Source: Lingula anatina
Lineage: Eukaryota; Animalia; Brachiopoda
Length of the DNA: 64,000 nt
Reading direction: 5' to 3'
Assembly: GCA_051362555.1 (NCBI GenBank)
Contig: CM120640.1
Coordinates: 25,034,225-25,098,224 of the forward strand
The position numbers and the translations under genes are program-made. Each line of letters begins with the position of its first letter. Within the stretch, counting starts at the first letter, position 1. This document shows positions 21,401-62,100 of the stretch, one piece after another. A model generated the notes under the pieces. That model was not told the DNA's origin. It ran no database searches and saw only the letters and a program-made list of their open reading frames with translations.

Positions 21401-24400
21401 ACCTTGAAAATGCCAATATGTGAAAAATTAAATTTTCACAAAAAAAAAAAAAAAAACAGTTTAACTGCCAGAAAAATTTACCAAACAAACTGCATTGCCC
21501 ACTGAAGCTTTATTTAAGTCCCATGTTTCTTTCCTGTAAGTTTGAGAACAGTAAGTGACATGGTTTTGCATAAATGGTCATCATGGGAGCAGTGTCCAAA
21601 ATAGGTGTGTCTTCAAATTTTGATGCAATATTACATAATGTTTAACAGGATAATTACCATCAAATTTTAATAATAAAATATTAGTATCATGGATATTCAG
21701 AAAATGTTCCTAGCAAAGGTCTTCAGGACCAAGGAACTTCAAAGTCACACCTTGAAAATGCCAAAATGTAGACAAGGCAGCACTGTCCTGAAATGTGTTT
21801 TTTTCCATTTTTAACAATTTTTTAACATATAACAAAATTAACAATTTACTGCCATTTTTATATGATCAACTAAGAAAATTGATGAGATAGGAAAAATATC
21901 AATAGAACAGTGTTAAATGTCCAATTTCCTCCATTCTGAGATTCTGAACATAGTGAATGAATGAATCTGACAAACTGCTATGATATGAGTTTATTTCCAT
22001 TTTTGAAACTCTATTATACAATACATGATAACAAGTTTACCATCATTTTTACATAATCAACTAACAATGTTGTAAAGATGCAGGAAATGTCAAACAAACA
22101 CTTTTACAAATCTTATTAGTTAAATAATGAGACTGTTAACATGCCTAAGAATTGAATCTGAGGAAATGTGAAAAAACAGCATAACTTATAAAATAATGGT
22201 CCGATTATGCTGATTTTCGAACTTGACCTGCGTTTTAGTAAGATTAATTACTCCTGTGAGTTTCATGACAACAGGTTTATCGGTTTTCCTTGAAATGTGT
22301 TAACAGTGTTGCACATATGCTCAAAAGTGAAAAAAACAGCATAACTACTAAAATAGTGGCCCGATCATGCTGATTTTCGAACTTGATCTGCGTTTTAGTA
22401 AGATTGATTACTCCTGTGAGTTTCATGACAACAGGCCTATCTGTTTTCCTTGAAATGTGTTAACAGTGTTGTATATATGCTAAAAAGTGAAAAAACAGCA
22501 TAAATTCTACAATAATGGCCCGATCATGCTGATTTTCGAACTTGACCTGTGTTTTATGAATATTAGTCAGCTCTGTAAATGTTAGGCCAAAAAGTAAAAC
22601 CGTCTTCCACTTATGGTGTTAACGCTGAAAGTGCACGGCGACGGCGACATGATCGGCGACGGCGACGGCGACGACAGACGCAGGTGATGGCAATATGTAC
22701 AGACACATCTGTGTCTGTACATAAAAAAGGACAAATATTACTACGCTTTGTTTAACTTGATCTGCTGTGGTGGATAATAAGATGAGGAACCAGTTGATAC
22801 GATCGCCTTGGGAAGGTTGTCACAATACACTAGATAGAGGTTTTAACAGAATTGCTCAATTACAGAATTCCAGGAAATAATACAATACCCAATTTTTCTT
22901 GATTGCCATTTTTCACGTACACCAATCACACTGTCAAAATGAGTTTATAATGGTGATTTTGGTTATCATGACATTAGTATTCCAATTATATTCCCAACTA
23001 TTGTCACAAGCATCTCTGTGTCATTTACGTGTCCCAAAAATCCAACTCATACACTTTGCCATGTAACAAATAAACTACTTCAACTGACAACATGACTTGT
23101 TTTCATATCGCATAAAGAAAACCTTATCTCTTGAAATAACAAAGGATCTCCCAGGTTTTTCTATCCCTATATCAACTTAATAACTGACTGACTGACACAC
23201 TGACTGATTAATTAACTAAATAAATACAGGCTGCTAACATTCTTTTGTCTTCCCAATCAGGTCAAAAGAACACAGGGGAAAAACCTTCATTCCCCGCTTA
23301 CCACCAGTGGGTGAAATCAAAAACCATCCACTAATAAATCTTTTGTATTTTAATTGACAAAAAAACCCGATCCCGACAGGTGAAATTTTGTGATAAATGA
23401 CATCAAACAGCAATTTAATCATTTCCTTTCTGCACTGCCTATCGGTTGCTGTGTGATTTTAGCCAGGGCTAACAAAGCTGTTTCCCAGAACAGGTATACA
23501 CTTTCCCAGGAATCAGATAAGGCCTACTTGACACCTTTATGATTTCTAAATGGGATTTACGCTGCATTGTGTCAGGACGCACACAAAAAATCCCAATGAT
23601 TTTTAACATTAACCACCTGCATTATTACGATAGAAAACTATACTCATAAAATGCTGCCAGTTTTGTTGCAAACAATGCACTGCCTACCTATAGGGTATTT
23701 ATCTTTTATCAATTTTGTATGATGTTTTTATAGGATGGGCTGGCACACAAATAGATACAAACTCCCCTTGAGGAATGGACTGAGGCACGTTTAGAGACTT
23801 ATTGATCAGTCTAATCAGAGCAAAGGCACCAGTTGGTCTTCTTTAAACAAATGCCTTGTCCAGTAAGAAGCCATATTGTACTCTTAATCTAGACAACATC
23901 AAAGCTACAAAAATTGATATACAACCACTCAGGCTATAAAGGTCAACAATTCTGGTACCCACACTTCTCATGAAATACAGCCATTTTCTCATCGTAGCTG
24001 CATTTTACGACATTGTTTGGGCTTCTTCCCTCATCATGGAAATTGTCAAGAAGCTCAAAAAATTTCTTGTCAGGCTTCTTCCATGTGATGTAGGTTGTGG
24101 TTGTGTGTCGTGGGGTTATTTGACACTTCTTGTGAGATTAGCATAGTCGGCAGTAAATAGTTCTGTTATCTGCTCTGCCATGACACGATGACAGGGAATT
24201 TATCAACATCAACATCCTAGGTCCCTAGTTAACCTTCTAACCTTGAGTTTTTTTTTTATCCCTAATCATAGGTTACTTAACACTCCTAAGCTTATTTATG
24301 CATTTAGGAAAAATACAATAATATACAAACATAGCTACTTCACACTTCTAAGCTTTTTTTTTTTTTTTTTTTTTTTTTTGTTAAGGGCCAAATAAATTGC

Positions 24401-29800: not shown

Positions 29801-32537
29801 TCTGTGTGCAACCTGTTGAACACTTACAACATAAAGTCTTGCTCCCAGCTTGGCTGTCTGCCCTTTACCGCGATAGTAGTAGATTTCACATTTTGGAGTT
29901 TGAGTGTGACATAGCTATGGAATTTTTCTGGAAAAAAGAAAAAAAATCATTATTGCAATTGCTTTTTAATACAAATATAAAGAAAGAATGGGAATCATGT
30001 GTTATATCAGATTAATGCAATTCAATTTTCAATCATCAGCTTAATGATGATTTATTATTTCCTCTGTTTTATAAAGTCAAATATCAGTAGTCTTGAATAA
30101 AATCCATCTATATACAGTGTACATATCTATAGATCAAAATCTATCAATCAAACAACAAAAAGTCATATTCAACAGAAATAAAATTTACAACATGGAAAAC
30201 CATTTATTTTACTTATGATCCTTAAAAATATAAACGAGACAGCAAAGCTGACAAATATACAGACACAATACAGGAAACAAGGCAGCAAAGCTGACAAATG
30301 TTCAGAGGAATGTTTTGGCCAATTTTGATGCACTATTACTAACACTATGCTCTAAAACAGCATAATCGCCCTTACCCTCTTACATTATGTACTACAGGCA
30401 ACATGGATATTAATAAACTAGCAAGTAATTCAGTTTCATGGGTTAAAAAAGCCACTGAAAATGCTCATGTGTGAAAAATAAAATATATAAAAAAAACGGA
30501 ATAATTACCGTAAATGTAAAGCAATCATGCTGATTTTCGAAAGGAACCTGCCACTTTACCAAACAAAGCCACTCAGTAAATTTAATGTAAAACAAAAATA
30601 TGGTTTGGCAGTTCTGGGGTGAACATCACCAAAATTGTACAAAAAAAAAACAAAATAAGTACAGTAAATGTAAACCATTCATACAGATTTTCAAAAGCAA
30701 CCTGCTTCTTTACCAAACAAAGCTACTCAGTAAATCTAATGTAAAGCAAAAATATAGTTTGGCAGTTATGGGGCCAATGTCACCAAAATTGTGCAAAAAA
30801 ACAGAATAATTACTGTAAATGTGAATGGATGCTGACTTTTTGAAAGCAACCTGCTTCTTTACCAAACAAAGCAAGTCAGTTAATTTAAAGTAAAACAAAA
30901 ATACAGTTTGGCAGATATGGGATGAATGTCATGTCATATGTCATACCAAACAAAGCAAGTCAGTTAATTTAAAGTAAAACAAAAATACAGTTTGGCAGAT
31001 ATGGGATGAATGTGTCGGACACCAAGGCGACTGTGACGACACTGACAGACAGACAAACCAGAATATATACAGACACTGTAAGTGTCTGTATATAAAAAAC
31101 TGTTAGATTATTTATATTGGCAATAGGCAGTCAACCAAAAGACATGAAGTGGTTGGTGATTTTGAGCTGTATTTTGAAATATATTTGAAGAATTGACATA
31201 AGAATTTGCAAATATTGGTCCTCTCTTGTAGGAACCCATTGATACATCAATATCAGTGTTAATTACTGGGAAATTAGAAAAGAAAAAACTTTGCCAGGCA
31301 TGGACGAGAATAAACAAGCATGGATACGGAATAGAGAAAAGTGATTCCTATTAAGGATAAAATACTGCAACTGAGCACTGTCCTGAACACATCAATTCAC
31401 GTTTGTGTCTGAGGTTAGATATCCCCAATGATAATTGTCTGCTATTACAAAGAATTATCTTGAACTCTGTCTGATTCCAGGGAATGTAAAGAAAACCCAG
31501 GGGGAAATCAATGGCATTATTCTCTGGCTTGCTGCTATTGTTAGTCCATCTTTATTGACTTCATACATCTACAACATGGTGTTCACCCATGTACAATGGC
31601 AGTATACTGACTCCTTATATCTTAGCCAGGCCCATTTTCCTCCCCAAGTCAATCAAATTTATAATTGGAAACCTGAGCCTTATGCTTTGCCTTACCTTAT
31701 TTACCCTGGCTGTTGATCAAACTTATTAATTGGATATTACTGCATCTAACTGTATCTCATATTTATTTCTGTAAAGTTTATTAACTTATGTCTATATGTC
31801 CAGTTTTGCAGGTAAAGCAACGAGACAAGGAAAGACAGTAAACCATCACAGAGACAGATGCACAAGGATGAAAGAACAGACTGCCACGGATTGTGAAGAC
31901 AGGAAAAAAAAGAGGAAGAATTTTGACTAAATAATCTGGCACACCTCTTATTTCTTCATTTTTGCCATTTATATCTCATAATAATGGTATTTGCATCTAA
32001 TTAAAATTGAAGGTTTACCTGGGAAAAATCCTCACTTTCACACTGAACACTTAATCATAAGAAGCTGCAATTACTTCGCATCACACACTATTATTGCACA
32101 TTATGCCTTGAGCAGCCCCTGTGATTAATCCATGCAATGGTTAAACTTACAAAACAGTATAATCTAGCCAAATTACATCACGGAACAGAGCAGATTGAGA
32201 TGGCTAGGCCAGGGAATGAGCTTTAACCAATTAATTAAGCTTCTGAGCACATCAAGTTTTAGTCCGCAGCTAGACAACTGAGACTAGAGATAGTTCATTA
32301 AATACCACATTCAGACTACAATGCGAAAAAATTCAAATTTTTGAATATGAATTTCAGATGAAAAATTTGATTCACTTTCCTGTTTACACACAGCAAAATG
32401 AAGCAGAATTGCAAAGCTGAAAATGCCAGTGCGACTTCCTGCAGTTTGAACAATCTTGCATGTGCCACACAGGAAAACTTGAGCATACAAAAAGATGGGT
32501 GTCATTTATTTCTTTATGGTATACATACTGTTTTTTT

Positions 32538-46050: not shown

Positions 46051-46563
46051 TTTTGTAAATCAATATAATTTGTTTTTTTCATTTTTCAGAATAACAAGTC
46101 AGCTGATTACAAAATGTGTTTCAGAGTACTTGGGTGACTGAACATGCTAAGTCCAGTGTACTTCCAATTGTCTCTCTACAATTCATTACAATCAGAACAA
46201 CCATACTCCCTCAGGCTGCCTCAAAAATGCAGCCACCCTACGCCAAATTACATTATCCACATTTTGGATCAGTGTTCAAATACACGCACACTAAAGTAGC
46301 CTGCGAGAAGTTCACAGCTACCAGCTTAACGGACATCGTACCTATAAAAATTTTAGGGAGAAGGTATGTTGCTCAGAAATTTTCATCAAATTTGCCTGCA
46401 CATTTCACAGACATTGCTTAGAACTTATTACTCTTATTATAAACAAAATGACAGGCAGAATAATCAAAATATAAAATATAAAAGAAAATGTATATGTTGA
46501 TAAGATGTTATTACCAACTTTGCGCATCACTATCAAAGGCCATCCCCTTTGAACAAGTTGACC

Positions 46564-46645
46564 ATTGGTGACAACAAGAACGCCATCATGTGACTATACG
46601 TCAACAAAGGTATAAAAGCGCAAAATTTTAAAAGTGCGTTCACTC
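46564..46645 (+). promoter_or_regulatory. Putative Pol II core promoter (inverted CCAAT, TATA, Inr)
   Basis: ATTGG 46564-46568, TATAAAAG 46611-46618 and TCACTC with A at 46642, placing TATA at -31. Confidence 0.5.
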
Positions 46646-46813
46646 AACAGCGGACAGATCTAGAGCAACAGGAAGGATGCCATGTGCTGCGCCCTGTATC
46701 AAGCACAAAGGACACGGGAGTCGACTCCCATTTCTCCGAATCTTCTACTCATCCTACGTCAACGCATCGCTCTTCGACATGTAGCGATTTGGGGTGAGTG
46801 CAGAAAAATCACC

Positions 46814-46886
46814 AGCCAGGCCAGGAATCGAACCCGGGACCCCTCGCTTACAGGGCGAGTGCTCTTACCTACTGAGCTACCCGACC
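46814..46886 (-). tRNA. tRNA-derived cloverleaf (Thr-TGT-like, non-canonical C33) inside an LTR; probably a Pol III module rather than a translating tRNA
   Basis: GGTCGGG TA GCTC AGTAGGTAA GAGC A CTCGC CCTGTAA GCGAG GGGTC CCGGG TTCGATT CCTGG CCTGGCT; A box and B box intact. Confidence 0.55.
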
Positions 46887-47004
46887 GGTTCTACCTGCCC
46901 CTGGCACTACACTCCTCCCCCCCAAATGCCGAAAGACGCGAGCCCTTTCTCGCAACACCGCTGCCACCATTGTAGCGATTTGGGGTGAGTGCAGAAAAAT
47001 CACC

Positions 47005-47077
47005 AGCCAGGCCAGGAATCGAACCCGGGACCCCTCGCTTACAGGGCGAGTGCTCTTACCTACTGAGCTACCCGGCC
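47005..47077 (-). tRNA. tRNA-derived cloverleaf, copy in middle LTR
   Basis: As the first copy, with one substitution (GGCCGGG) turning a U-G pair into a C-G acceptor-stem pair. Confidence 0.55.
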
Positions 47078-47195
47078 GGTTCTACCTGCCCCTGGCACTA
47101 CACTCCTCCCCCCCAAATGCCGAAAGACGCGAGCCCTATCTCGCAACACCGCTGCCACCATTGTAGCGATTTGGGGTGAGTGCAGAAAAATCACC

Positions 47196-47268
47196 AGCCA
47201 GGCCAGGAATCGAACCCGGGACCCCTCGCTTACAGGGCGAGTGCTCTTACCTACTGAGCTACCCGACC
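47196..47268 (-). tRNA. tRNA-derived cloverleaf, copy in 5' LTR
   Basis: Identical to the 46814-46886 copy by eye. Confidence 0.55.
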
Positions 47269-47519
47269 GGTTCTACCTGCCCCTGGCACTACAGACATAT
47301 TGTTCCCTGCACATGCAGACGTCTAGACGGTGGATTCGGCGTTTCTCTTAGCTGGCCAGCTAAAATCTTCGCTTCTCCCCACGAGGAATCGTCGCTCGGT
47401 CATCTTCGCAGGATACTTCACCTTTTTGCTGTCGTGGGCTGGAGTCGTAGTGTCATTGCATATTCCCATGCTTTCCAGGTTTCTTTTTATTACAGGTCCA
47501 GGAAGCAGACTGCAAACTG

Positions 47520-48430
47520 GTGGGCGCCACCTGTGGGACTTCGACTACACTCCTTAAGGTATGTAATCTTTTTTTCTTTTTGGAAGGGGGGTTTGAGAAA
47601 TGAAAGAAATCTAATCTCGTTTTTATTTCTGTTTACAGGACATGGAAGATGATGGGCGCCACCTGTGGGACTTCGACTACACTCCTTAAGGTATGTAATC
47701 TTTTTTTCTTTTTGGAAGGGGAGTTTGAGAAATGAAAGAAATCTAATCTCGTTTTTATTTCTGTTTACAGGACATAGAAGATGATGGGCGCCACCTGTGG
47801 GACTTCGACTACACTCCTTAAGGTATGTAATCTTTTTTTCTTTTTGGAAGGGGGGTTTGAGAAATGAAAGAAATCTAATCTCGTTTTTATTTCTGTTTAC
47901 AGGACATGGAAGATGATGGGCGCCACCTGTGGGACTTCGACTACACTCCTTAAGGTATGTAATCTTTTTTTCTTTTTGGAAGGGGAGTTTGAGAAATGAA
48001 AGAAATCTAATCTCGTTTTTATTTCTGTTTACAGGACAAAGAAGATGATGGGCGCCACCTGTGGGACTTCGACTACACTCCTTAAGGTATGTAATCTTTT
48101 TTTCTTTTTGGAAGGGGAGTTTGAGAAATGAAAGAAATCTAATCTCGTTTTTATTTATGTTTACAGGACAAAGAAGATGATGGGCGCCACCTGTGGGACT
48201 TCGACTACACTCCTTAAGGTATGTAATCTTTTTTTCTTTTTGGAAGGGGAGTTTGAGAAATGAAAGAAATCTAATCTCGTTTTTATTTGTGTTTACAGGA
48301 CATAGAAGATGATGGGCGCCACCTGTGGGACTTCGTCTACACTCCTTAAGGTATGTAATCTTTTTTTCTTGTTGGAAGGGGGGTTTGAGAAATGAAAGAA
48401 ATCTAATCTCGTTTTTATTTCTGTTTACAG
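47520..48430 (+). repeat. 132-bp tandem repeat, about 7 copies; each unit is a 52-nt exon-like block plus an 80-nt GT-AG intron
   Basis: AAG|GTATGT ... TCTAAT ... TTTCTGTTTACAG|G recurs every 132 bp with few substitutions. Confidence 0.95.
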
Positions 48431-48491
48431 GACACAACTGCAAGGAGACACCCCACATCTACACTTAAGCTACTTCGACCTTCCCTTGGAG

Positions 48492-49400
48492 CCAGCGAGT
48501 CCTGCCATGGTCTGTCTACGAGGTGGCGGCACAGGGGAAGCCTCCAGCGAGTCCTGCCATGGTCTGTCTACGAGGTGGCTGCACCGGGGAAGCGTCCAGC
48601 GAGTCCTGCCATGGTCTGTCTACGAGGTGGCTGCATTGGGGAAGCGTCCAGCGAGTCCTGTCATGGTCTGTCTACGGGGTGGCTGCACTGGGGAAGCGTC
48701 CAGCGAGTCCTGTCATGGTCTGGCTACGAGGTGGCTGCACTGGGGAAGCGTCCAGCGAGTCCTGCCATGGTCTGTCTACGAGGTGGCTGCACTGGGGAAG
48801 CGTCCAGCGAGTCTTGTCATATGGTGTTTCAATGAGATGGAAACCACTTAAAGGTAAGCCTGACTGCAGAGTGCTGACATAGTATGAAAAGTCATTAATT
48901 CATTTTTCTTTCTGTTGACAGAACACAACTGCAAGGAGACGTCCCACATCTACGCTTAAGCTACTTTGACCATTCCTTGGTGCCAGCGAGTCCTGCCATG
49001 GTCTGTCTCTTTGATGTGGCTGCACTGGGGAAGCGTCCAGCGAGTCCTGTCATGGCCTGTCTACGTGGTGGCTGCATTAAGGAAGCGTCCGGCGAGTCGT
49101 GCCATGGTCTATCTGCGAGGTGGCTGCACTTGGGAAGCGTCCAGCGAGTCCTGTCATGGTCCGTCTACGAGGTGGCTGCACTGGGGAAGCGTCCAGCGAG
49201 TCCTGCCATGGTCCGTCTACGAGGTAGCTGCACTGGGGAAGCGTCCAGCGAGTCCTGCCATGGTCTGTCTACGAAGTGGCTGCACTAGGAAGCGTCCAGC
49301 GAGTCCTGCCATGGTCCGTCTACGAGGTAGCTGCACTGGGGAAGCGTCCAGCGAGTCCTGCCATGGTCTGTTGAGGAGGCTGCATTGGAGAAGCGTCTGA
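48492..49400 (+). repeat. 52-bp minisatellite in two duplicated blocks (about 6.5 and 8 copies); a diverged single copy near 49935
   Basis: Unit CCAGCGAGTCCTGCCATGGTCTGTCTACGAGGTGGCTGCACTGGGGAAGCGT. Confidence 0.95.
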
Positions 49401-50728
49401 AGCATATGGTGTTTCACTGAGGCGGAAAAACCTGCAAGGTAACCCGTGTTACTGGCGAGAACAATACACTAAAATTAATTTTTCAGCAGCAGTCTGTGCC
49501 ATAAACTTTTCACCCTACTGGCCATTCAGTCCACCTTCTTTCCTAAAAACTAGATATAAATGTCTGAATCTTGATTCACTGGTTCGAATACAAAGTTCAA
49601 TAGGACTAGACTGGATTGCATTAATATTTGTATTAACAAGACCTTGACATTTTTCTCGAATCATGATGTAACAGTTACATTTAAAATAAATCAAAAGCTC
49701 TTTTTCATACTTATAGAAAAAATCTAACAGCCATGTCACCAAATTGACACATTCTGGAAATCTACCGATTCCAACAATTTTTCTGGCTGCAGACTGCTTT
49801 TGAGATACAATTTTTGAAAACTAATCAAAATTTCCTTTCTATTTACAGAACTCATTTAGGGCAATTCCTGATAAAGTCCCGCTTTTTTGAAAGAGGTGCA
49901 AGAAGAGGGTCGCATTCAATCCTTGGTGCATGGTTGAGTCCTGCCATGGTCTGTATGTTAGGGGGCTGCATGGGGGAGCATCGGAAGCATATGGCGTTTC
50001 ACAGAGATGGAAACCCTTAAAAGGTACATATCACTCATGTTTTTTGGGGAAAACAAAACACTTAAGTGATTTTTCATACCTTGAAAAACTAAAAACCGTT
50101 AGCCACATTAATTTGACAGCTCAAATTCAGAAGGCACTGTCTTTTACCCATGACCCACTCCTAGGATTAAGATATTTATGGTTAGTAGATTGGATTTGGG
50201 TGGGAGAAGTAAGGAGGGAAACTTTTGACTTATAATTTTTTTATTTTGTAGTTGAGGCAGATAGCATTGGCGAGCGCCTGTCCTGATGACGGTCCATTTT
50301 AACAAGGTTAACAAGGCTAAAATGGAGAAAGTCATGTCAGCTATATCATATAGTGTTTCAAGAGCCCTTCAATAGTTGTGATCAGAGAGCATTCAAGGTA
50401 AGTTATGGGACAGGATAAGGGTAAATGAACTAGATTGTCATTCATTGTATAGATAATACAAATCTTTTATCAGTGCAACTCCAACAAACTGAGCATTTTG
50501 TGCAAGGTCTTAGACAATTGTTTTAAGAATGTTTGGGACCTGTCACTCGGTGCAGGCATTTGTTTTCCATTTACAATTTACTCTAGCAAATTCAGTGCTC
50601 ATTTTTCACAGGTAAAAAGCTCTTTTAATTTGTCACAGATGTGGAAAAACCTTATCATTCATACAAAATATTTTGACATGCCATTCGTCAACTTTCAGAT
50701 CCTCAACAGTCTCAATATTCTGCAGGAC

Positions 50729-51195
50729 GTTGTCAATGGTCCAGATTACTTGGAGCTACCGCCCCCACCACCCACCACCACCAATGTGACTCCGGGGCGT
50801 GGTCACTGGTCCAGATTACTTGGAGCTACCGCTCCCACCACCCACCACCACCAATGTGACTCCGAGGCGTGGTCACTGGTCCAGATTACTTGGAGCTACC
50901 GCCCCCACCACCCACCACCAACAATGTGACTCCGAGGCGTGGTCAGTGGTCCAGATTACTTGGAGCTACCGCCCCCACCACCCACCACCAACAATGTGAC
51001 TCCGAGGCGTGGTCAGTGGTCCAGATTACTTGGAGCTACCGCCCCCACCACCCACCACCACCAGTGTGACTCCAGGGCGTGGTTACTGGTCCAGATTACA
51101 TGGAGCTACCGCCCCCAACACCCACCACCAATGTGACTCCGGGACGTTGTCGCTGGTCCAGAAATTGTATACTAGCAGCTACCACCCCCACCTCC
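50729..51195 (+). repeat. 70-bp minisatellite, about 6.5 copies, C-rich on the plus strand
   Basis: Unit TGGTCCAGATTACTTGGAGCTACCGCCCCCACCACCCACCACCACCAATGTGACTCCGRGGCGTGGTCAC. Confidence 0.95.
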
Positions 51196-53879
51196 AGTGC
51201 TGTGGTTGTGGTAATAAAAGGCCACCGTAGAAGTGAGTATTTCCATCTCTCTATATTGTTCAGATTGTTAGGCATTTTCCTGGTTTATATGCCTCCCTTT
51301 ACGCCTCTTGTTCTCCAGTCACTTTCTTTTTGTAGAATCTTGGCACTCCCAATCAATGTTTTTTTTGTGATGGTTCGTTGTAGCAGAAGGCTACCTTGGG
51401 CTGTAGTGTATTTTTCCCTCTTCAGGTACCCTTTCTTATTCCTTCCCGTGTTCTTTAACTCTAACGTTCAACTTTCTCTTTGTCTCTCCCATATAAATCC
51501 TTCACAAATTAAACACCTGATGGAATACTAGTGCACTCCTCCCGCTGGATCTAGACTGTTCAGGCTTTACTTAAACTTGTCTTTGAGTAGAGTCGTTTGA
51601 ATGCTGTTAGTGTTCCTTTTCCTTCGTTAAAACTAATTTGTGCAATAACCCATTGTGACATTAAGTCTGAAGGTCGCCAGTGGCATGTCAAAATATTTCG
51701 CTTGAATGTTTTTTCCAAGTTTGTGACAAAAGTGCTTTTGATATTTATTTCCCATCAAACTGCTGAAACTTTAAAAACACATTTCATATACAAATGGTTG
51801 ACTTTTATTACATTTTGAAGTAATAATTTAAATTTGCAGGCTACCAAAAGTGGTGGATTCTAAAAATGAAGATTGCAATACCAAACCTCCAGATGAAACA
51901 CTTCTTCAGGATTGAGGGATCTTTATACAGATAACTTTGTAAGTTATTGGGGATCAACAACTTAAGAAAAGTGGTTCTGAATTTTTTAAGTATTATAATT
52001 GGTGTATTATGGCATTTCTTATTATTGACAGTGATCAAAAACTATATCCTATGTAAACAAACAGTAGAATTAGAAGTAGCACAGACAGTCAACAATTTAA
52101 CATGTAGGCTAACATTACAATATTCAATATAGCAACATCTTTTCTTACTTTTTTTGTCAAATGTTTGAAATAATTTATTTTTTGAAGACTGCTGTCTACT
52201 TACTCTAAAAAGTTAATATATATATTTCAATAAAGGAAGCATATTTCACTGTACATTTGGAAATAACGCTCTGATCATTTTAAGAACCAAGCTTTTCATT
52301 AATGTTAACGGTGTGTAAATACCAGTGATATACTTTCTTTGTTGCAGTTACTGCAAGCTTTCGATATAGCTTTTCATACTTTTGAGTAAAAGTTGGATTT
52401 CATTTGTAGGCTACGAATTGGCAGTTTTCCAATAATTACGCCTGCATGATGTCGGATAACGTCGACCTAAGACCAAATGTCCAAGATGTTAAACACTGTA
52501 CAGCGTTAGCAAGGAGCCCTGTGGACACTTTCATCGATGCTCGGATATCCCACGAGTTTTGGTGTTGAAGGACACGGCTTGTTCTGCAAACAAATATAGA
52601 GAATGTGGAATGGTAATGAAGGCAATATACAGTACTGAATGTAGTGGGAATACAGTCTAATAATGTATCAGTCTTTTGGATGCTGAGAATATTTGGGGTT
52701 CATGGGTCACAAACATGTCAAGGTGAAATTGCATCAAATTTCATTTGTATTTTATGCCTTATGCAGTGAACCATTTTATTTCAATAACAGAAGAGAAAAC
52801 TGAGGTTCAAGATAATTCTTCATTCCATACAAGATCAATTGAATAAGATGTGTGCTTCTGTAGGAAAAGTCTACCTCTACAGTTGCTATAATTATTATAT
52901 TAATAAATTTGAATATAGAGTTGCTTTATCCACATTCTGAATGCAGATAGTTTTTTGCTCACAAAAACATTCCCACCACTTGTGGTCGTCTGTGTTTTGT
53001 TTCAATCTGAGATGGTCATTTTTCAAATTTGTGCTTTTGATGATGTGGAGTTGTTTGTCAGTATGGCATTTGAAAAGGTCTTAACCTGCACACTAACCTT
53101 ACTAACAAACCCTCACATCTTTGTAAAATCTGACTTCATGTAAACGCTTTTACATGAAGAGATTTCACATTGATAGATTGTGCAAAATCTGTAATGAAAT
53201 ATTTTACGTGTGAGAAAATATTTCATTATATATTTTGTACAGTCTGCTCTTCTTGAGAGATGCTGTCATCTCTCAAGATAGAGATCACATTACTAATATT
53301 CAGATTTTCTCAAGTGTTATAGTTGACAAATACATCCACTTCATCACATATGAACCTTTTCTCCGGATCAAAAAAATTCAGATTGAAATTTACATGGGCG
53401 GTCATACAGTGTAATGTGAGATCCGAAATATTTGAAGCAAGCTTGCTTTATTCTGTACTTGTATCATGCAGGTAGTTGCGATTTCAGTGCAAAGTTACAT
53501 TTAAGAAACCTGGTATTTTAAGTCGAATTATATATCAAAGTTTAGTTGAAATCATTGATATTCCCGAGTTATAATCATATTACTTGAATCTGTTTGCATT
53601 TCATCATAAAGAGAACTATAATCAAGTTTTGAAAGATGCTTGCAGTTGTAAAATGATTAACTTTATTTATGGTTTTAATTCTCCAAGATAAAGTCAAAAT
53701 TATTCTGTTTAGTTGTTATCTCTTGTTAGTTTTTTTATTGGCTTCATTGCCTTTTTCTGTAAGAATTACTTTAATAAGTTTTTATGCTTCACCTCGTGTA
53801 TAGTATATATAGAGAATAGTTAGTCAAGACAAAGGTTATTCCGTCACACAATGCTGTCTAAAACGGGACGATTCTTGAA

Positions 53880-56516: not shown

Positions 56517-58243
56517 GTGCATGATATGAAAACGTGACACGGAACTTGAAGGTGCAAAATCGTGCTTAATTTGCGGTCAACTTGTTTTGAAATAAATGCT
56601 GCTTTGGCCGCCAGCGCGACAAAGAGCGTTAAGGGAAAATAATTCCCGGTAGTCTATAAATCTTTGTCATGTGGAAATTTGGCATTAATATAATCTGATA
56701 TGTCCATATCTAAGTATTTTGGGGTGTTTTATGGTATGGGCTGCAATTATAACGATGTTATAGAGGTTTTGAAGGACCTTATGAAAACCAGGAAGTAGTT
56801 CGTAACTAACAACTGAATCGTACCGATCTCCGACTGCTGTGCAAAGCTGTATCTTTTTTCAATATTTTGACGAATTTTTAGATCTTTATATGTCCATCTG
56901 ACATGAAATTCCACACATATGATCACACTAATACACCTTTTACACTGGGGGAGGAGCTAATAAGACAAATGCCAAGACAAAGGTGACATTTTGACAGCCT
57001 CTTATCTGAGTTTAAAATCACTGACAAAAGAGACTGGCAATCAATTTCCTCAGGCTGGCAATCATTAGCCTATAGAAATTGGTCACGTTATATCTTATCT
57101 ACCTGTGAGAATCGTTTTACCAAATGGTGCTTTATAATACTTCCTATGTGAATGCATTTATGTAACTAAAAACCTTCTTTTAAGGATACATAAGAAAATT
57201 TGATTGGAATATAAAATCCGAATAACTTAACTCTAATTATGACAGTGTTTAAACAATTTCATCATTTTATTTACACAAAAATATGTAGTAATTGTTTAAT
57301 ATAAATATACCATTTACTATATATTAAATCAACAATAATCAAAACCCATGTAACTTATGAGAGCAAAACCATTACAGATGACAGAATATCTTTTTTCCTG
57401 TCACTAAGTATAGCCCCTCGCCACCACCACCCTGAAAAATATATACCTGAAATGACTTCCCTACATCACGCTTGATGTTCACTATCCACTGCTTTTTCAG
57501 TTTTTCATCTACTGGAAATGTATGGTAGGACAGCTATGTTCCATCTTAAGAAAGTGGGCCTACACTGGGGCAAAGAGGCACACAACATTTCCTGAGACTC
57601 AGTAAAATTAAAAGTAGCAAAATTAATACTGAACAATTAATAACAAATGAGCTACTGCACAGCAATCAATGTGCAAGTCAAGACCATTTTGACAGGTAAT
57701 AAGCTGTAAGATGCCATTAAATGCCAGTCGCGTACTTGTGATTTTTAGCTCAGATAAGAGGCTGTCAGAATGTCACCTTTGTCTTGGCATTTGTCACTGA
57801 TTTGTGCCTACCCCAGTGTAAAAGGTGTATTAGTGTGCTCATATGTGTGGCATTTCATGTCAGATGGACATGTAAAGATATAAAAATTCGTTAAAATATT
57901 GAAAAAAAGATACAGCTTTGCACAGCAGTCAGAGATCGGTACGGTTCAGTTGTTAGTTACGAACTACTTCCTGGTTTTTACAAGGTCCTTCAAGACCTCT
58001 ATAACATCGTTATAATTGCAGCCCATACCATAAAACAGCCCAAAATACTTAGATATGGACATATCAGATTATATCAATGCCAACGTTGCATGACAACGAT
58101 TTATAAACTCCCGGGAATTATTTTCCCTTAACGCTCTTTGTCGCGCTGGCGGTCGATGCAGCATTTATTTCAAAACAAGTTGACCGCAAATTAAGCACGA
58201 TTTTGCACCTTCAAGTTCCGTGTCACGTTTTCATATCATGCAC
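56517..58243. mobile_element. Fold-back non-autonomous DNA element with about 500-bp terminal inverted repeats
   Basis: 56517 to about 57020 is the reverse complement of about 57738-58243 (GTGCATGATATGAAAACGTGACACGGAACTTGAAGG...) with scattered mismatches; no internal ORF; no clear TSD. Confidence 0.85.
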
Positions 58244-59171: not shown

Positions 59172-62100
59172 TTAATTTGATTTTCTTTTACGTTTTACCA
59201 TATGCGCAACTATATGATAAGTCAGTAATGATAACAAAAACAATATGGTAAGAAACAAGTTTAAATTTATACCCGACACTTCCGTGACTTTCTTGAAAAT
59301 TGGTGGTTTTTTCTCTTCAAAAGATGTGATGATAAAAGCATCTATATCTTCATTATTTGCGCTAAGGCTTGTGAACTTAAGGTCCTTGAGTGCAAAATTC
59401 CAAACAGCCCCTTGGCCCACTCCAAAGAACTCATCCGAATTATTTGGGAATAGTGCCCAGTGGCCTAGTGGCCCGTAAAACATGCGAAGAAACGGTTCAG
59501 TGGCATTATGAACAACGGTGACGCTGCCGAAAAGCGGGTGATGATATCGTCCCACATAGCTGCTGAGAGCCCGTGCCGCAGTGCCGCGAGTTCGGTTTGC
59601 ACCGGATTTGGGAATATATTGCCAGTCAGCAAACGGAGCTGGGAACGTGCAAATAGTTGAACTGTTCAGCCATGGAGTCTCCTCCAAAAGGATGTCCAAC
59701 AAGTATGCCATTATCACGCGTCTTCTAAAGTGAGATCTGTCAAACGTATTGAAATTCAGGTAGGCGCCGATGTTCATTGAAGGAATGAATGTTAGGATGG
59801 AAGAAAACCCGAGGGTCGATCCAGAATGCGTAACTAGTGGGTAGCCTGCAATGAATACACATAAAAGTTGTATATAAATACCACGCAATGGCGAAATAAG
59901 ATAAAATTTTAGAAAAATCATCACTTTTTCTTACATGACTCTCTATGAAATTGTAACTCAAAAATTTGCGTGAATTTTCTTTTAGATGGGGATTTTTACT
60001 TTATGGATTATGATAACCCTCGTTTTGAAATGGAGTACTAACTAACGCCGCATCACATTTTGGAGGCAACCAAGGATCCAGAGCTACAATTCCCAGATAA
60101 CTGAAGCTGAATAATAAGTATTTAACAACACAGATAACGATACTTATACATGTTGCACTTTCTCTCAGGTTGGTGCAATTGCATCTAGTTGAATTTCAAA
60201 AATATAAGACAGTGATACAAATATTTATACTTGCACTACAGTATAACACAATCAGACAGTCATAATATAATATAATATAATATAATATAATATAATATAA
60301 TACCTCGGTAATATCCCACTTTCCACGCACAGCCATATTCCTCGAATATAAAGGTGACGGGAGTTATTGGGCGAGCTGTAAACTTGTTGCGGGGATGAGG
60401 TACAGGAATAACAGGCCTGTATGTTTCTGCAAGAACTTCCTGTGGGATAACTTGAGTGTCGTCCTCTGCTCGGCCTTCGTTTAGGTGAAACAGTATCCAT
60501 TTCCCCATGTCTACTGAGTCAGAAACGATCGCCATTGAGGGGGCATTCATGGACCACAGCCTGTTAGAATGCATTATTTTGTTGTAGTATGCGTAGGTAA
60601 AAAATTGACTTGATATCCACCAAGCGTCTTATCTGATCAATTGCTTAAATGTGTAACACAGATAACATACGGTTAGTTAATATGACATATATTTTTAACG
60701 TAAAAATGGTATTTGTGAGATACATATTATTCTAGATGCATATTGGAAAATGTGTTACTATCAGTAGCACTAAGTGATATAGAATTCTTATTTGGCTTAC
60801 GGCAAATAGGCAGCTCATTAGGAAATTAGCGTATATAGAATTTATGCAATGATAGAATAACGTATAAAATGGAATTTGTGAGATACATATTGTTCTAGAA
60901 GTATATTTGAAATTGCTTTACTATGGATAACACCCAGTGATAAAGGGTTTTTTTTATGGCTAGGGGCAAATAGGCAGCTCACTAGGACAGCGAATATAGA
61001 ATTTATGCAATTATAGAACAGGCATCGGGTGCATATAGATAATGTCCCTTACGTCATTTTTACATAGTGCTCATTATACGGCAGAGAAATTAAGTTACTT
61101 CATGGTATAACCTCTGACTCTACAGTTTCATAGTATTAGTACTATGGTATTCAGTACACATAACAGAACCCAAAAATGCAATGCCAATATAGTCGTCTAA
61201 GGAAGGCTAATCTTCTTCTCAACCATGGCATTGTCTAAAGATTATTTCTCCAAAAGAATGTAGCTTATCGACTATGCCTACAGTCAGGGACTACACGTGC
61301 AATGAACACGTTTTGTCCGCATTAAAAATGACTAGCCTCTACAATCACAGATACTTGGTCAAATTTGTCCTTGCCAAGACCGATTATGATAATCGCAGGT
61401 TATTTTGCTCTATTGAAGATTAAATTTTCGAGTTGGGGACATTATATTATTCACCTGATACAACCCGATTGCCTGCAATTGTCACAAATTAGGCCTACTT
61501 ATTCTATCATGTCTGCTGAATTTTTTTTATGTTGCAAAGGAGTACGCATAATTTGTTATGATTGCACAGGACTGACAATAAATAGAGCTTACTTTAAAAT
61601 TTTAGGAGAAATTTCTCTTGTTGCGTTGAAGTTCCTTTTAGTAAAATCATAGGGTGTTGGTAACTGGAACTGCTCGTAATTTGACGTATTTAGGATGGCG
61701 GTGTGGCGCATGCCTATTGGTTTTAACAGCTCGTCCTGCATGGCATCTGACCATGGCTTCCTCGTCAGACGCTGTGTCACGTGACCAACTAACCCGTACA
61801 TAAGGTTGTTATACATTAATTTGCTTCTGAGTGGAAACGCTGTTTGGAGTAGCGGCAGTACCCTGAAATGAAATCATACTAACAACTCTAGTATCTTGGA
61901 AGATTTGGTCTCTCAAATGAAGATGACATAATAATGTTTTCAGTTTTGTTTTGTGACTGTATGTAATTTTTTATTATAAAGCTTTGATAAGTTCCCTGAA
62001 AGAAGTTTAGTATTATTCTTATAATATGTAAAGGCTTAAACAATTGTATCCAGTTTATAACTACACGAAAGGATACAGCTTACTGAGCAATGTTATCTAA

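Follow-up and report, generated by a model that had tools for sequence, protein, structure and literature searches.

Layout of the insertion and its surroundings

The window analyzed here was a 64,000-nt stretch of Lingula anatina contig CM120640.1, with all positions below counted from its first letter. At 46776 to 47297, it contained three 132-nt LTRs with TGTAG...CTACA ends, which alternated with two 59-nt internal parts and were bounded by one GACA on each side. The corresponding monomer amounted to 323 bp, and the complete insertion amounted to 514 bp as read from the sequence. The minus-strand order was LTR, single A, 14-nt PBS, short noncoding middle, 12-nt purine run (PPT), and next LTR. 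Both internal parts started on the minus strand with one A followed by TGGTGGCAGCGGTG, and each was closed by the purine run touching the next LTR. The features were as follows (the published family Helenus-1_LAn is introduced below):

46776 to 46779, no strand: TSD GACA, left copy (from the sequence and the single GACA in the empty site)
46780 to 46911, minus strand: 3′ LTR, 132 nt (from the sequence)
46813 to 46886, minus strand: tRNA-like unit of the 3′ LTR (ARAGORN and Rfam, 58.8 bits)
46912 to 46970, minus strand: second internal part, 59 nt, differing from the first at window position 46947
46971 to 47102, minus strand: middle (shared) LTR, 132 nt, 129/132 identical by eye to Helenus-1_LAn-LTR
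47004 to 47077, minus strand: tRNA-like unit of the middle LTR (ARAGORN and Rfam, 61.9 bits; MFE fold a full cloverleaf)
47103 to 47161, minus strand: first internal part, 59 nt, noncoding, 59/59 identical by eye to Helenus-1_LAn-I
47103 to 47114, minus strand: PPT, 12 nt, adjoining the next LTR (from the sequence; second copy at 46912 to 46923)
47147 to 47160, minus strand: PBS, 14 nt, 1 nt past the LTR, able to pair with the CCA end of tRNA-Leu(AAG) (repeated at 46956 to 46969)
47162 to 47293, minus strand: 5′ LTR, 132 nt, identical to the 3′ LTR and 128/132 identical by eye to Helenus-1_LAn-LTR
47195 to 47268, minus strand: tRNA-like unit of the 5′ LTR (ARAGORN and Rfam), with anticodon TGT and C at loop position 33
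47250 to 47261 and 47206 to 47216, minus strand: box A and box B, respectively, of the tRNA-like unit of the 5′ LTR
47186 to 47190, 46995 to 46999, and 46804 to 46808, minus strand: T5 runs, likely Pol III terminators judging from their place 5 nt past the tRNA-like unit
47294 to 47297, no strand: TSD GACA, right copy (from the sequence and the joint 46775 to 47294)

Tandem Repeats Finder reported the element with a period of 191, 2.7 copies, 99% matches, and a score of 1014. The two outer LTRs were identical to each other, the middle LTR was 1 base off both, and the two internal parts were 1 base apart. An earlier sequence-only reading of this DNA had described three 132-bp repeats, two 59-bp spacers, and a GACA pair, with each spacer starting 1 nt past an LTR and ending against the next; the repeats, spacers, and GACA pair were confirmed to exact coordinates, and the PBS and purine run lay at these spacer ends. 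Its class assignment (a nonautonomous LTR element with PBS, PPT, short TSD, and a shared-LTR tandem) was supported by the same anatomy. No further copy of the element was found elsewhere in the 64-kb window, and the sole open reading frame of at least 120 aa overlapping the element had no Pfam match.

The element lay inside a multicopy host repeat (about 46300 to 50000, plus strand), the empty form of which was present in poly(A) RNA; in sequencing run X13, the first mates over the flanks were nearly all of the minus strand, and the host-repeat RNA was thus likely of the plus strand. This repeat contained a 132-bp tandem at 47521 to 48434 (6.9 copies), in which 52-nt exons between GT...AG introns could be discerned by eye, followed by a 52-bp tandem at 48492 to 49397. 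Since 52 is not a multiple of three, the host repeat may be a spliced noncoding repeat or the inside of a large nonautonomous transposon.

Several other structures were seen in the window: (i) a 1.7-kb foldback element at 56517 to 58243, with inverted arms of about 500 nt each (91 to 96%), likely a nonautonomous DNA transposon; (ii) a MITE-like structure at 50656 to 51708, with 39-nt inverted arms (79%) around a 70-bp tandem array (50728 to 51162, 6.3 copies); (iii) tandem arrays at 22164 to 22556 (160 bp) and 30489 to 30926 (154 bp), the units of which shared a stretch by eye, so that both arrays likely belong to one dispersed minisatellite-bearing repeat family; and (iv) a 252-aa open frame at 59172 to 59930 (minus strand), probably the final exon of a host gene, whose product had a hydrophobic stretch at the C terminus and matched DUF3471 weakly, below the cutoff. 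Pfam searches of 5 of the 21 long open reading frames of the window gave nothing transposon-like, and one weak DUF3471 match under the cutoff was obtained.

Target site, dispersed copies, and family identity

Eight of 22 sequencing runs (X1, X4, X8, X9, X11, X13, X16, and X19) were compared with the window. Both reads and contigs displayed a joint from 46775 directly to 47294, which skipped exactly 518 bases, i.e., the 514-bp element plus 4 bases (one GACA). Among the matches listed, this joint was found in X1 (one contig), X11 (two contigs), X8 (one contig), X13 (nine reads with eight different starts), and X19 (two reads), and the single-GACA target that the sequence-only reading had proposed to look for was in this way present in at least five of the eight runs; X4 and X9 had loose ends reading the empty site, and X16 (six reads) had none. 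A GACA duplication alone would be met by chance at about 1 in 256. The empty target carried a single GACA, and therefore the duplication was made on insertion: the locus was confirmed to hold a real insertion with a 4-bp target duplication.

The flanks themselves belonged to a multicopy repeat; among its copies in the reads and contigs, many had diverged and some were identical. In X4, coverage of the right flank exceeded that of the left roughly 18-fold (1021 versus 57), and thus identical paralogues of the flank exist. The flanks being multicopy, the empty site may be a paralogue rather than an allele of the same locus.

Loose ends at the LTR edges ran into several unlike flanks in at least four of the eight runs (X1, X4, X8, and X13), representing further insertion sites and matching the expectation of the sequence-only reading that dispersed copies would be found; in X1, at least three contigs left the LTR edge at 47102, with an agreement of 0.56.

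A second joint, from 46780 to 47308 with two other letters in between, was present in X9, X8, and X13 (10 reads) among the matches listed; it corresponded to a host-repeat variant with a short deletion beside the target site.

Two classes of TRIMs came into question for the family assignment: Helenus, composed of TRIMs with a tRNA-derived sequence in the LTR, and Ajax, composed of TRIMs with a 5S rRNA fragment (Kojima, 2024; PMC10886601). The literature search, in which the other hits were judged from their listings alone, returned this article as the only primary description of Helenus. Three Helenus families were reported there from the brachiopod Lingula anatina, and Helenus-1_LAn had an LTR of 132, an internal part of 59, a full length of 323, and a TSD of 4 (Table S1 of PMC10886601).

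Compared by eye with the published Helenus-1_LAn, the internal parts of the window element matched at 59/59 and 58/59 positions, and its LTRs matched at 129/132 (middle) and 128/132 (outer). The LTR differences from the published consensus, likewise located by eye, fell at positions 92, 97, and 98 of all three LTRs and, in the two outer LTRs alone, at position 28, while position 28 of the middle LTR (window 47075) had the published consensus base. The published letters at LTR positions 92, 97, and 98 (window 46820, 46815, and 46814 and their equivalents) occurred in reads and contigs of other samples, which provided an independent check of the by-eye comparison. The window element was noncoding, shorter than 1000 bp, and dispersed, and it displayed an LTR tRNA with boxes A and B, a PBS and a PPT, and a 4-bp TSD, as elements of Helenus (TRIMp3) do. 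The 5S rRNA-derived LTR sequence of Ajax and Cassandra was not found, since the Rfam matches listed for 46500 to 47600 were tRNA only, with no other Rfam family among them.

By its almost letter-for-letter likeness, the window element is a three-LTR copy of the published Helenus-1_LAn, and both class and family were already known in 2024. The family match by itself makes L. anatina, or a species very close to it, the likely source of the window. The comparison with Ajax, Helenus, and Cassandra that the sequence-only reading had called for was settled in favor of Helenus-1_LAn, by eye against the supplement of PMC10886601. The class name that it had given, Ajax, was wrong, because the tRNA-bearing class is Helenus and Ajax carries 5S rRNA (PMC10886601), and its idea that the family might be undescribed did not hold, the family having been published with matching lengths and sequence. 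As a discovery, the element is of small weight, with class and family in print since 2024. The identity of the outer LTRs, together with 97 to 100% identity to the consensus, indicated that the insertion is likely recent.

Origin of the three-LTR form

The three-LTR form rested on the window assembly, and none of the contigs or reads listed spanned internal part, LTR, and internal part. At position 28, T stood in both outer LTRs and the consensus C in the middle one. Contigs covering position 28 piled up on the middle LTR (in X8, a depth of 9434 at 47074 to 47097 versus 259 and 0 at the matching outer bins), and therefore T28 is a rare form. At position 92, all three LTRs shared C, which was rare in the family: 11/11 X8 contigs at 46820 carried the other base, and 2543 of the 2890 X9 depth at 47202 (the position 92 equivalent) was for the other base. 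Since this rare C92 was common to all three LTRs, the parents of the window copy would be near-identical sister copies.

Flanking TSDs and matching outer LTRs mark a dimer from one round of reverse transcription (Sabot and Schulman; PMC1950507). In the window copy, the identical outer LTRs shared a rare base missing from the middle LTR, which favors formation before integration: the element is likely a three-LTR dimer formed before it was integrated, an argument that stands on one base. Such a form would arise when a strand jumped between two copackaged RNAs or when an older tandem was read through twice to give a 465-nt RNA, and it would then have been integrated as one piece. The window copy would accordingly be one more likely case of a dimer made during reverse transcription, as known from cereals; in PMC10886601, tandem arrays were noted only for zebrafish LTR-11_DR.

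Two alternatives were weighed against dimer formation before integration. Firstly, an integrated monomer might have become a tandem when its two LTRs underwent unequal exchange across sister chromatids or homologues. Such an exchange would likewise leave one TSD pair, the rare base shared at position 92 by all three LTRs points to a single source lineage, and unequal exchange was discussed for the arrays of Cassandra (PMC7215508), the long ones of which are attributed to recombination or template switching. But all three LTRs, and likewise both internal parts, should then be identical; two later changes would be needed, one of them restoring the consensus in the middle LTR, and this origin is considered unlikely. 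Secondly, the tandem might be an assembly artifact of a two-LTR monomer, as could be suspected from the lack, among the contigs and reads listed, of any crossing from one internal part through an LTR to the other. Such repeats are collapsed in short-read contigs, though, and the distinct bases in the middle LTR and in the two internal parts are not expected of a simple duplication error; moreover, three LTRs plus two internal parts were the commonest form among maize TRIM tandems (63/93; PMC4717578). An artifact is thus highly improbable.

Proposed transcription and mobilization, and relation to known elements

ARAGORN predicted tRNA-Thr(TGT) on the minus strand of all three LTRs, and Rfam model RF00005 matched the three LTRs over 74 nt with 58.8 to 61.9 bits against a gathering score of 29. 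The tRNA-like unit occupied LTR positions 26 to 99 (74 nt), and its boxes A and B were intact, in line with the earlier claim of a complete tRNA cloverleaf with A and B boxes in each LTR. The predicted MFE fold was a cloverleaf for the middle copy and not for the outer variant, and the first acceptor pair of the window copy was G-U. At loop position 33, C was found instead of the U of the Rfam consensus; U33 is near-invariant in tRNAs. Of the traits of a functional tRNA-Thr(UGU), the complete cloverleaf was thus found, while the canonical anticodon loop (U33) was not. According to PMC10886601, only some bivalve and fungal families passed tRNAscan-SE without isotype disagreement, and the LAn families were outside those listed there as able to encode tRNA (Results 3.5; Fig. 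S1). The tRNA-like part likely serves as a promoter and not as a working tRNA, a promoter role being the simpler of the two.

Each LTR carried one T5 run after the tRNA-like unit, and neither strand of the element had any other stretch of at least four T. In animals, T4 to T5 may stop Pol III more readily than in the yeast assays mentioned below, and therefore the leak past T5 may be small. A run of at least four T downstream of box B was also counted by eye in 22 of the 24 named LTRs, from related and hence nonindependent families, that are fully printed in one portion of the supplement of PMC10886601. In yeast assays, five T were a minimal, weak terminator and six T an efficient one, and nearby RNA structure strengthened weak ones (PMC9278858). 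The main text of PMC10886601 used the word stem "terminat" only for Cassandra; there, the portion conserved between the LTRs of different Helenus families was boxes A and B, and Pol III transcription of Helenus was expected and not validated for any family.

The following course is proposed. TFIIIC would bind boxes A and B, and Pol III would start at or near the tRNA 5′ end (LTR position 26). Most transcripts would end at the T5 of the LTR in which they began and measure about 83 nt. Some would continue past it as far as the T5 of the following LTR, and the resulting 274-nt RNA would be bounded on either side by the entire tRNA-like unit, which would act as the R region. Because the T5 terminator precedes the PBS, the template for reverse transcription would have to be the read-through product. 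Pol III transcription from the tRNA-like promoter of the LTR is likely. From the anatomy of the window copy, RNAs of about 83, 274, and 465 nt with precisely defined ends are expected, which makes the Pol III question testable for Helenus.

The RNA reads that matched numbered 6 in X16, 70 in X13, and 9 in X19 (with 6, 6, and 25 in 100 of the respective run read); over the element, they covered both strands without a pileup of starts or ends, and two of the three libraries were of poly(A)/oligo-dT type, which would miss short nonpolyadenylated RNA. These reads fit passive inclusion in host transcripts.

An alternative to Pol III transcription is that the mobilized RNA is supplied by Pol II read-through from surrounding genes or repeats, in which case the tRNA-like part would be a relic or act chiefly as a folded R region. 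A few RNA reads on both strands left the LTR edges into unrelated flanks (in X13, four reads at 46780 and three at 47102), the host repeat was present in poly(A) RNA, and the T5 of the first LTR would halt many Pol III transcripts before the PBS. Those RNA libraries were mostly poly(A) selected, though, and the conservation of boxes A and B across Helenus families (PMC10886601), as well as the T run after the tRNA in 22/24 LTRs, is what Pol III units should have; a Pol II source is considered quite improbable.

A bolder version of Pol III transcription assumes a two-product unit, in which (i) stopping at the first T5 would release an RNA of tRNA shape, which would undergo processing and perhaps charging as tRNA-Thr(UGU), and (ii) read-through would yield the 274-nt retro-RNA, its R region being the whole tRNA. 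If true, the element would seed the genome with tRNA genes, either working ones or decoys. All four differences from the consensus lay in the 14-nt acceptor stem, where each exchanged C and T opposite a G and kept the pairing, as if the cloverleaf itself were selected, beyond the promoter boxes; this pattern was spotted post hoc, and C/T changes opposite G preserve pairing by nature. The two-product unit is held to be very unlikely.

That the three units are simply clustered tRNA-Thr(UGU) genes of the host, although compatible with three complete tRNAs called by ARAGORN and Rfam and with the cloverleaf fold of the middle copy, has a negligible probability, given that the entire 514-bp unit was missing from the empty target, that LTR ends, PBS, PPT, and TSD were all present, that loop position 33 was C and not the U of the Rfam consensus, and that the LAn families were not among the tRNA-encoding candidates listed in PMC10886601. 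ARAGORN and Rfam nonetheless report copies of the Helenus-1_LAn type as tRNA-Thr genes, and tRNA counts will be inflated accordingly.

A stem was predicted at 47094 to 47190 (minus strand), joining U5 to the PPT and the first bases of the following LTR, and an equivalent stem seemed possible by eye in the published Helenus-2_LAn and Helenus-3_LAn. The 97-nt piece had z scores of -2.0 and -1.7 (5 and 12 of 200 shuffles were as good), and the 274-nt RNA had a z score of -0.1; the duplex was matched by 21 to 74 of 2000 shuffles, or by 426/2000 when the internal end alone was used, all for a region picked after the fold had been seen. The stem was weak against shuffles and chosen post hoc, and it is not claimed as a real feature.

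Against the tRNA-Leu-AAG ends of honeybee (Fig. S2) and human (Fig. S3) shown in PMC10886601, the PBS formed 14 contiguous pairs by eye, starting from the CCA end; the tRNA-Leu PBS named by the sequence-only reading agreed with this result. Host tRNA-Leu is the predicted primer, an assignment that for Helenus-1_LAn comes from the sequence-only reading and the present comparison and not from PMC10886601. The internal parts of Gypsy-57_CaAu and Gypsy-130_CGi start with the same PBS (Fig. S2 of PMC10886601). In that article, the PBSs of animal Helenus were found only in Gypsy elements, the animal families had 4-bp TSDs, and Gypsy helpers were inferred for animal Helenus from these two traits. By analogy, and as the sequence-only reading had likewise proposed, the window element was likely mobilized in trans by an autonomous Gypsy partner: the Gypsy helper would package the RNA, tRNA-Leu(AAG) would prime at the PBS, and the PPT would prime the second strand. 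Among the articles listed for Gypsy and LTR retrotransposons of Lingula anatina, no title or abstract beginning named a helper. A metagenome scan with the LTR-PBS junction gave 21 loci, all (21/21) unrelated; the monomer matched over only 18 to 27 bases around the pattern, none of the 21 loci repeated the upstream 20 bases, and the matches were taken as chance.

Self-priming by the LTR's own tRNA-like end (plus CCA) was considered and rejected: it would form 7 contiguous pairs with the PBS, 3 nt in, versus 14 for tRNA-Leu(AAG), it leaned on base 98, at which the published consensus has another letter, and no such complementarity was found in PMC10886601 either.

Taken as a whole, the locus very probably represents a three-LTR insertion of Helenus-1_LAn, likely transcribed by Pol III and likely mobilized by Gypsy, with tRNA-Leu as the predicted primer.

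The window element and Helenus-1_LAn shared an LTR of 132, an internal part of 59, a monomer of 323, a TSD of 4, and the same ends, PBS, PPT, and tRNA-like unit, with LTRs 97 to 98% identical by eye and internal parts identical or 1 base off, but the window copy was a three-LTR dimer with three to four changes per LTR relative to the consensus. The LAn families were absent from the PBS figure, the copy-number table, and the figure of possibly functional tRNAs in PMC10886601. Helenus-2_LAn and Helenus-3_LAn, from the same host, had the same PBS start, PPT, and LTR ends and similar lengths, while their LTRs and internal parts were clearly further diverged by eye than those of Helenus-1_LAn. Ajax, also a TRIM of invertebrates, resembled the window element in having an LTR promoter derived from a small RNA and in the assignment of its PBS to tRNA-Leu, but it carried a 5S rRNA fragment, had a 5-bp TSD, and was restricted to nemerteans (PMC10886601), and the window element is not an Ajax. 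Cassandra and the other tandem TRIMs of plants (PMC7215508 and PMC4717578) differed by their hosts, their 5S rRNA promoter, and their length of 565 to 860 bp; in Cassandra, transcription reportedly ends such that a repeat of only 18 nt results, whereas the predicted repeat of the window element would be the whole tRNA-like unit.
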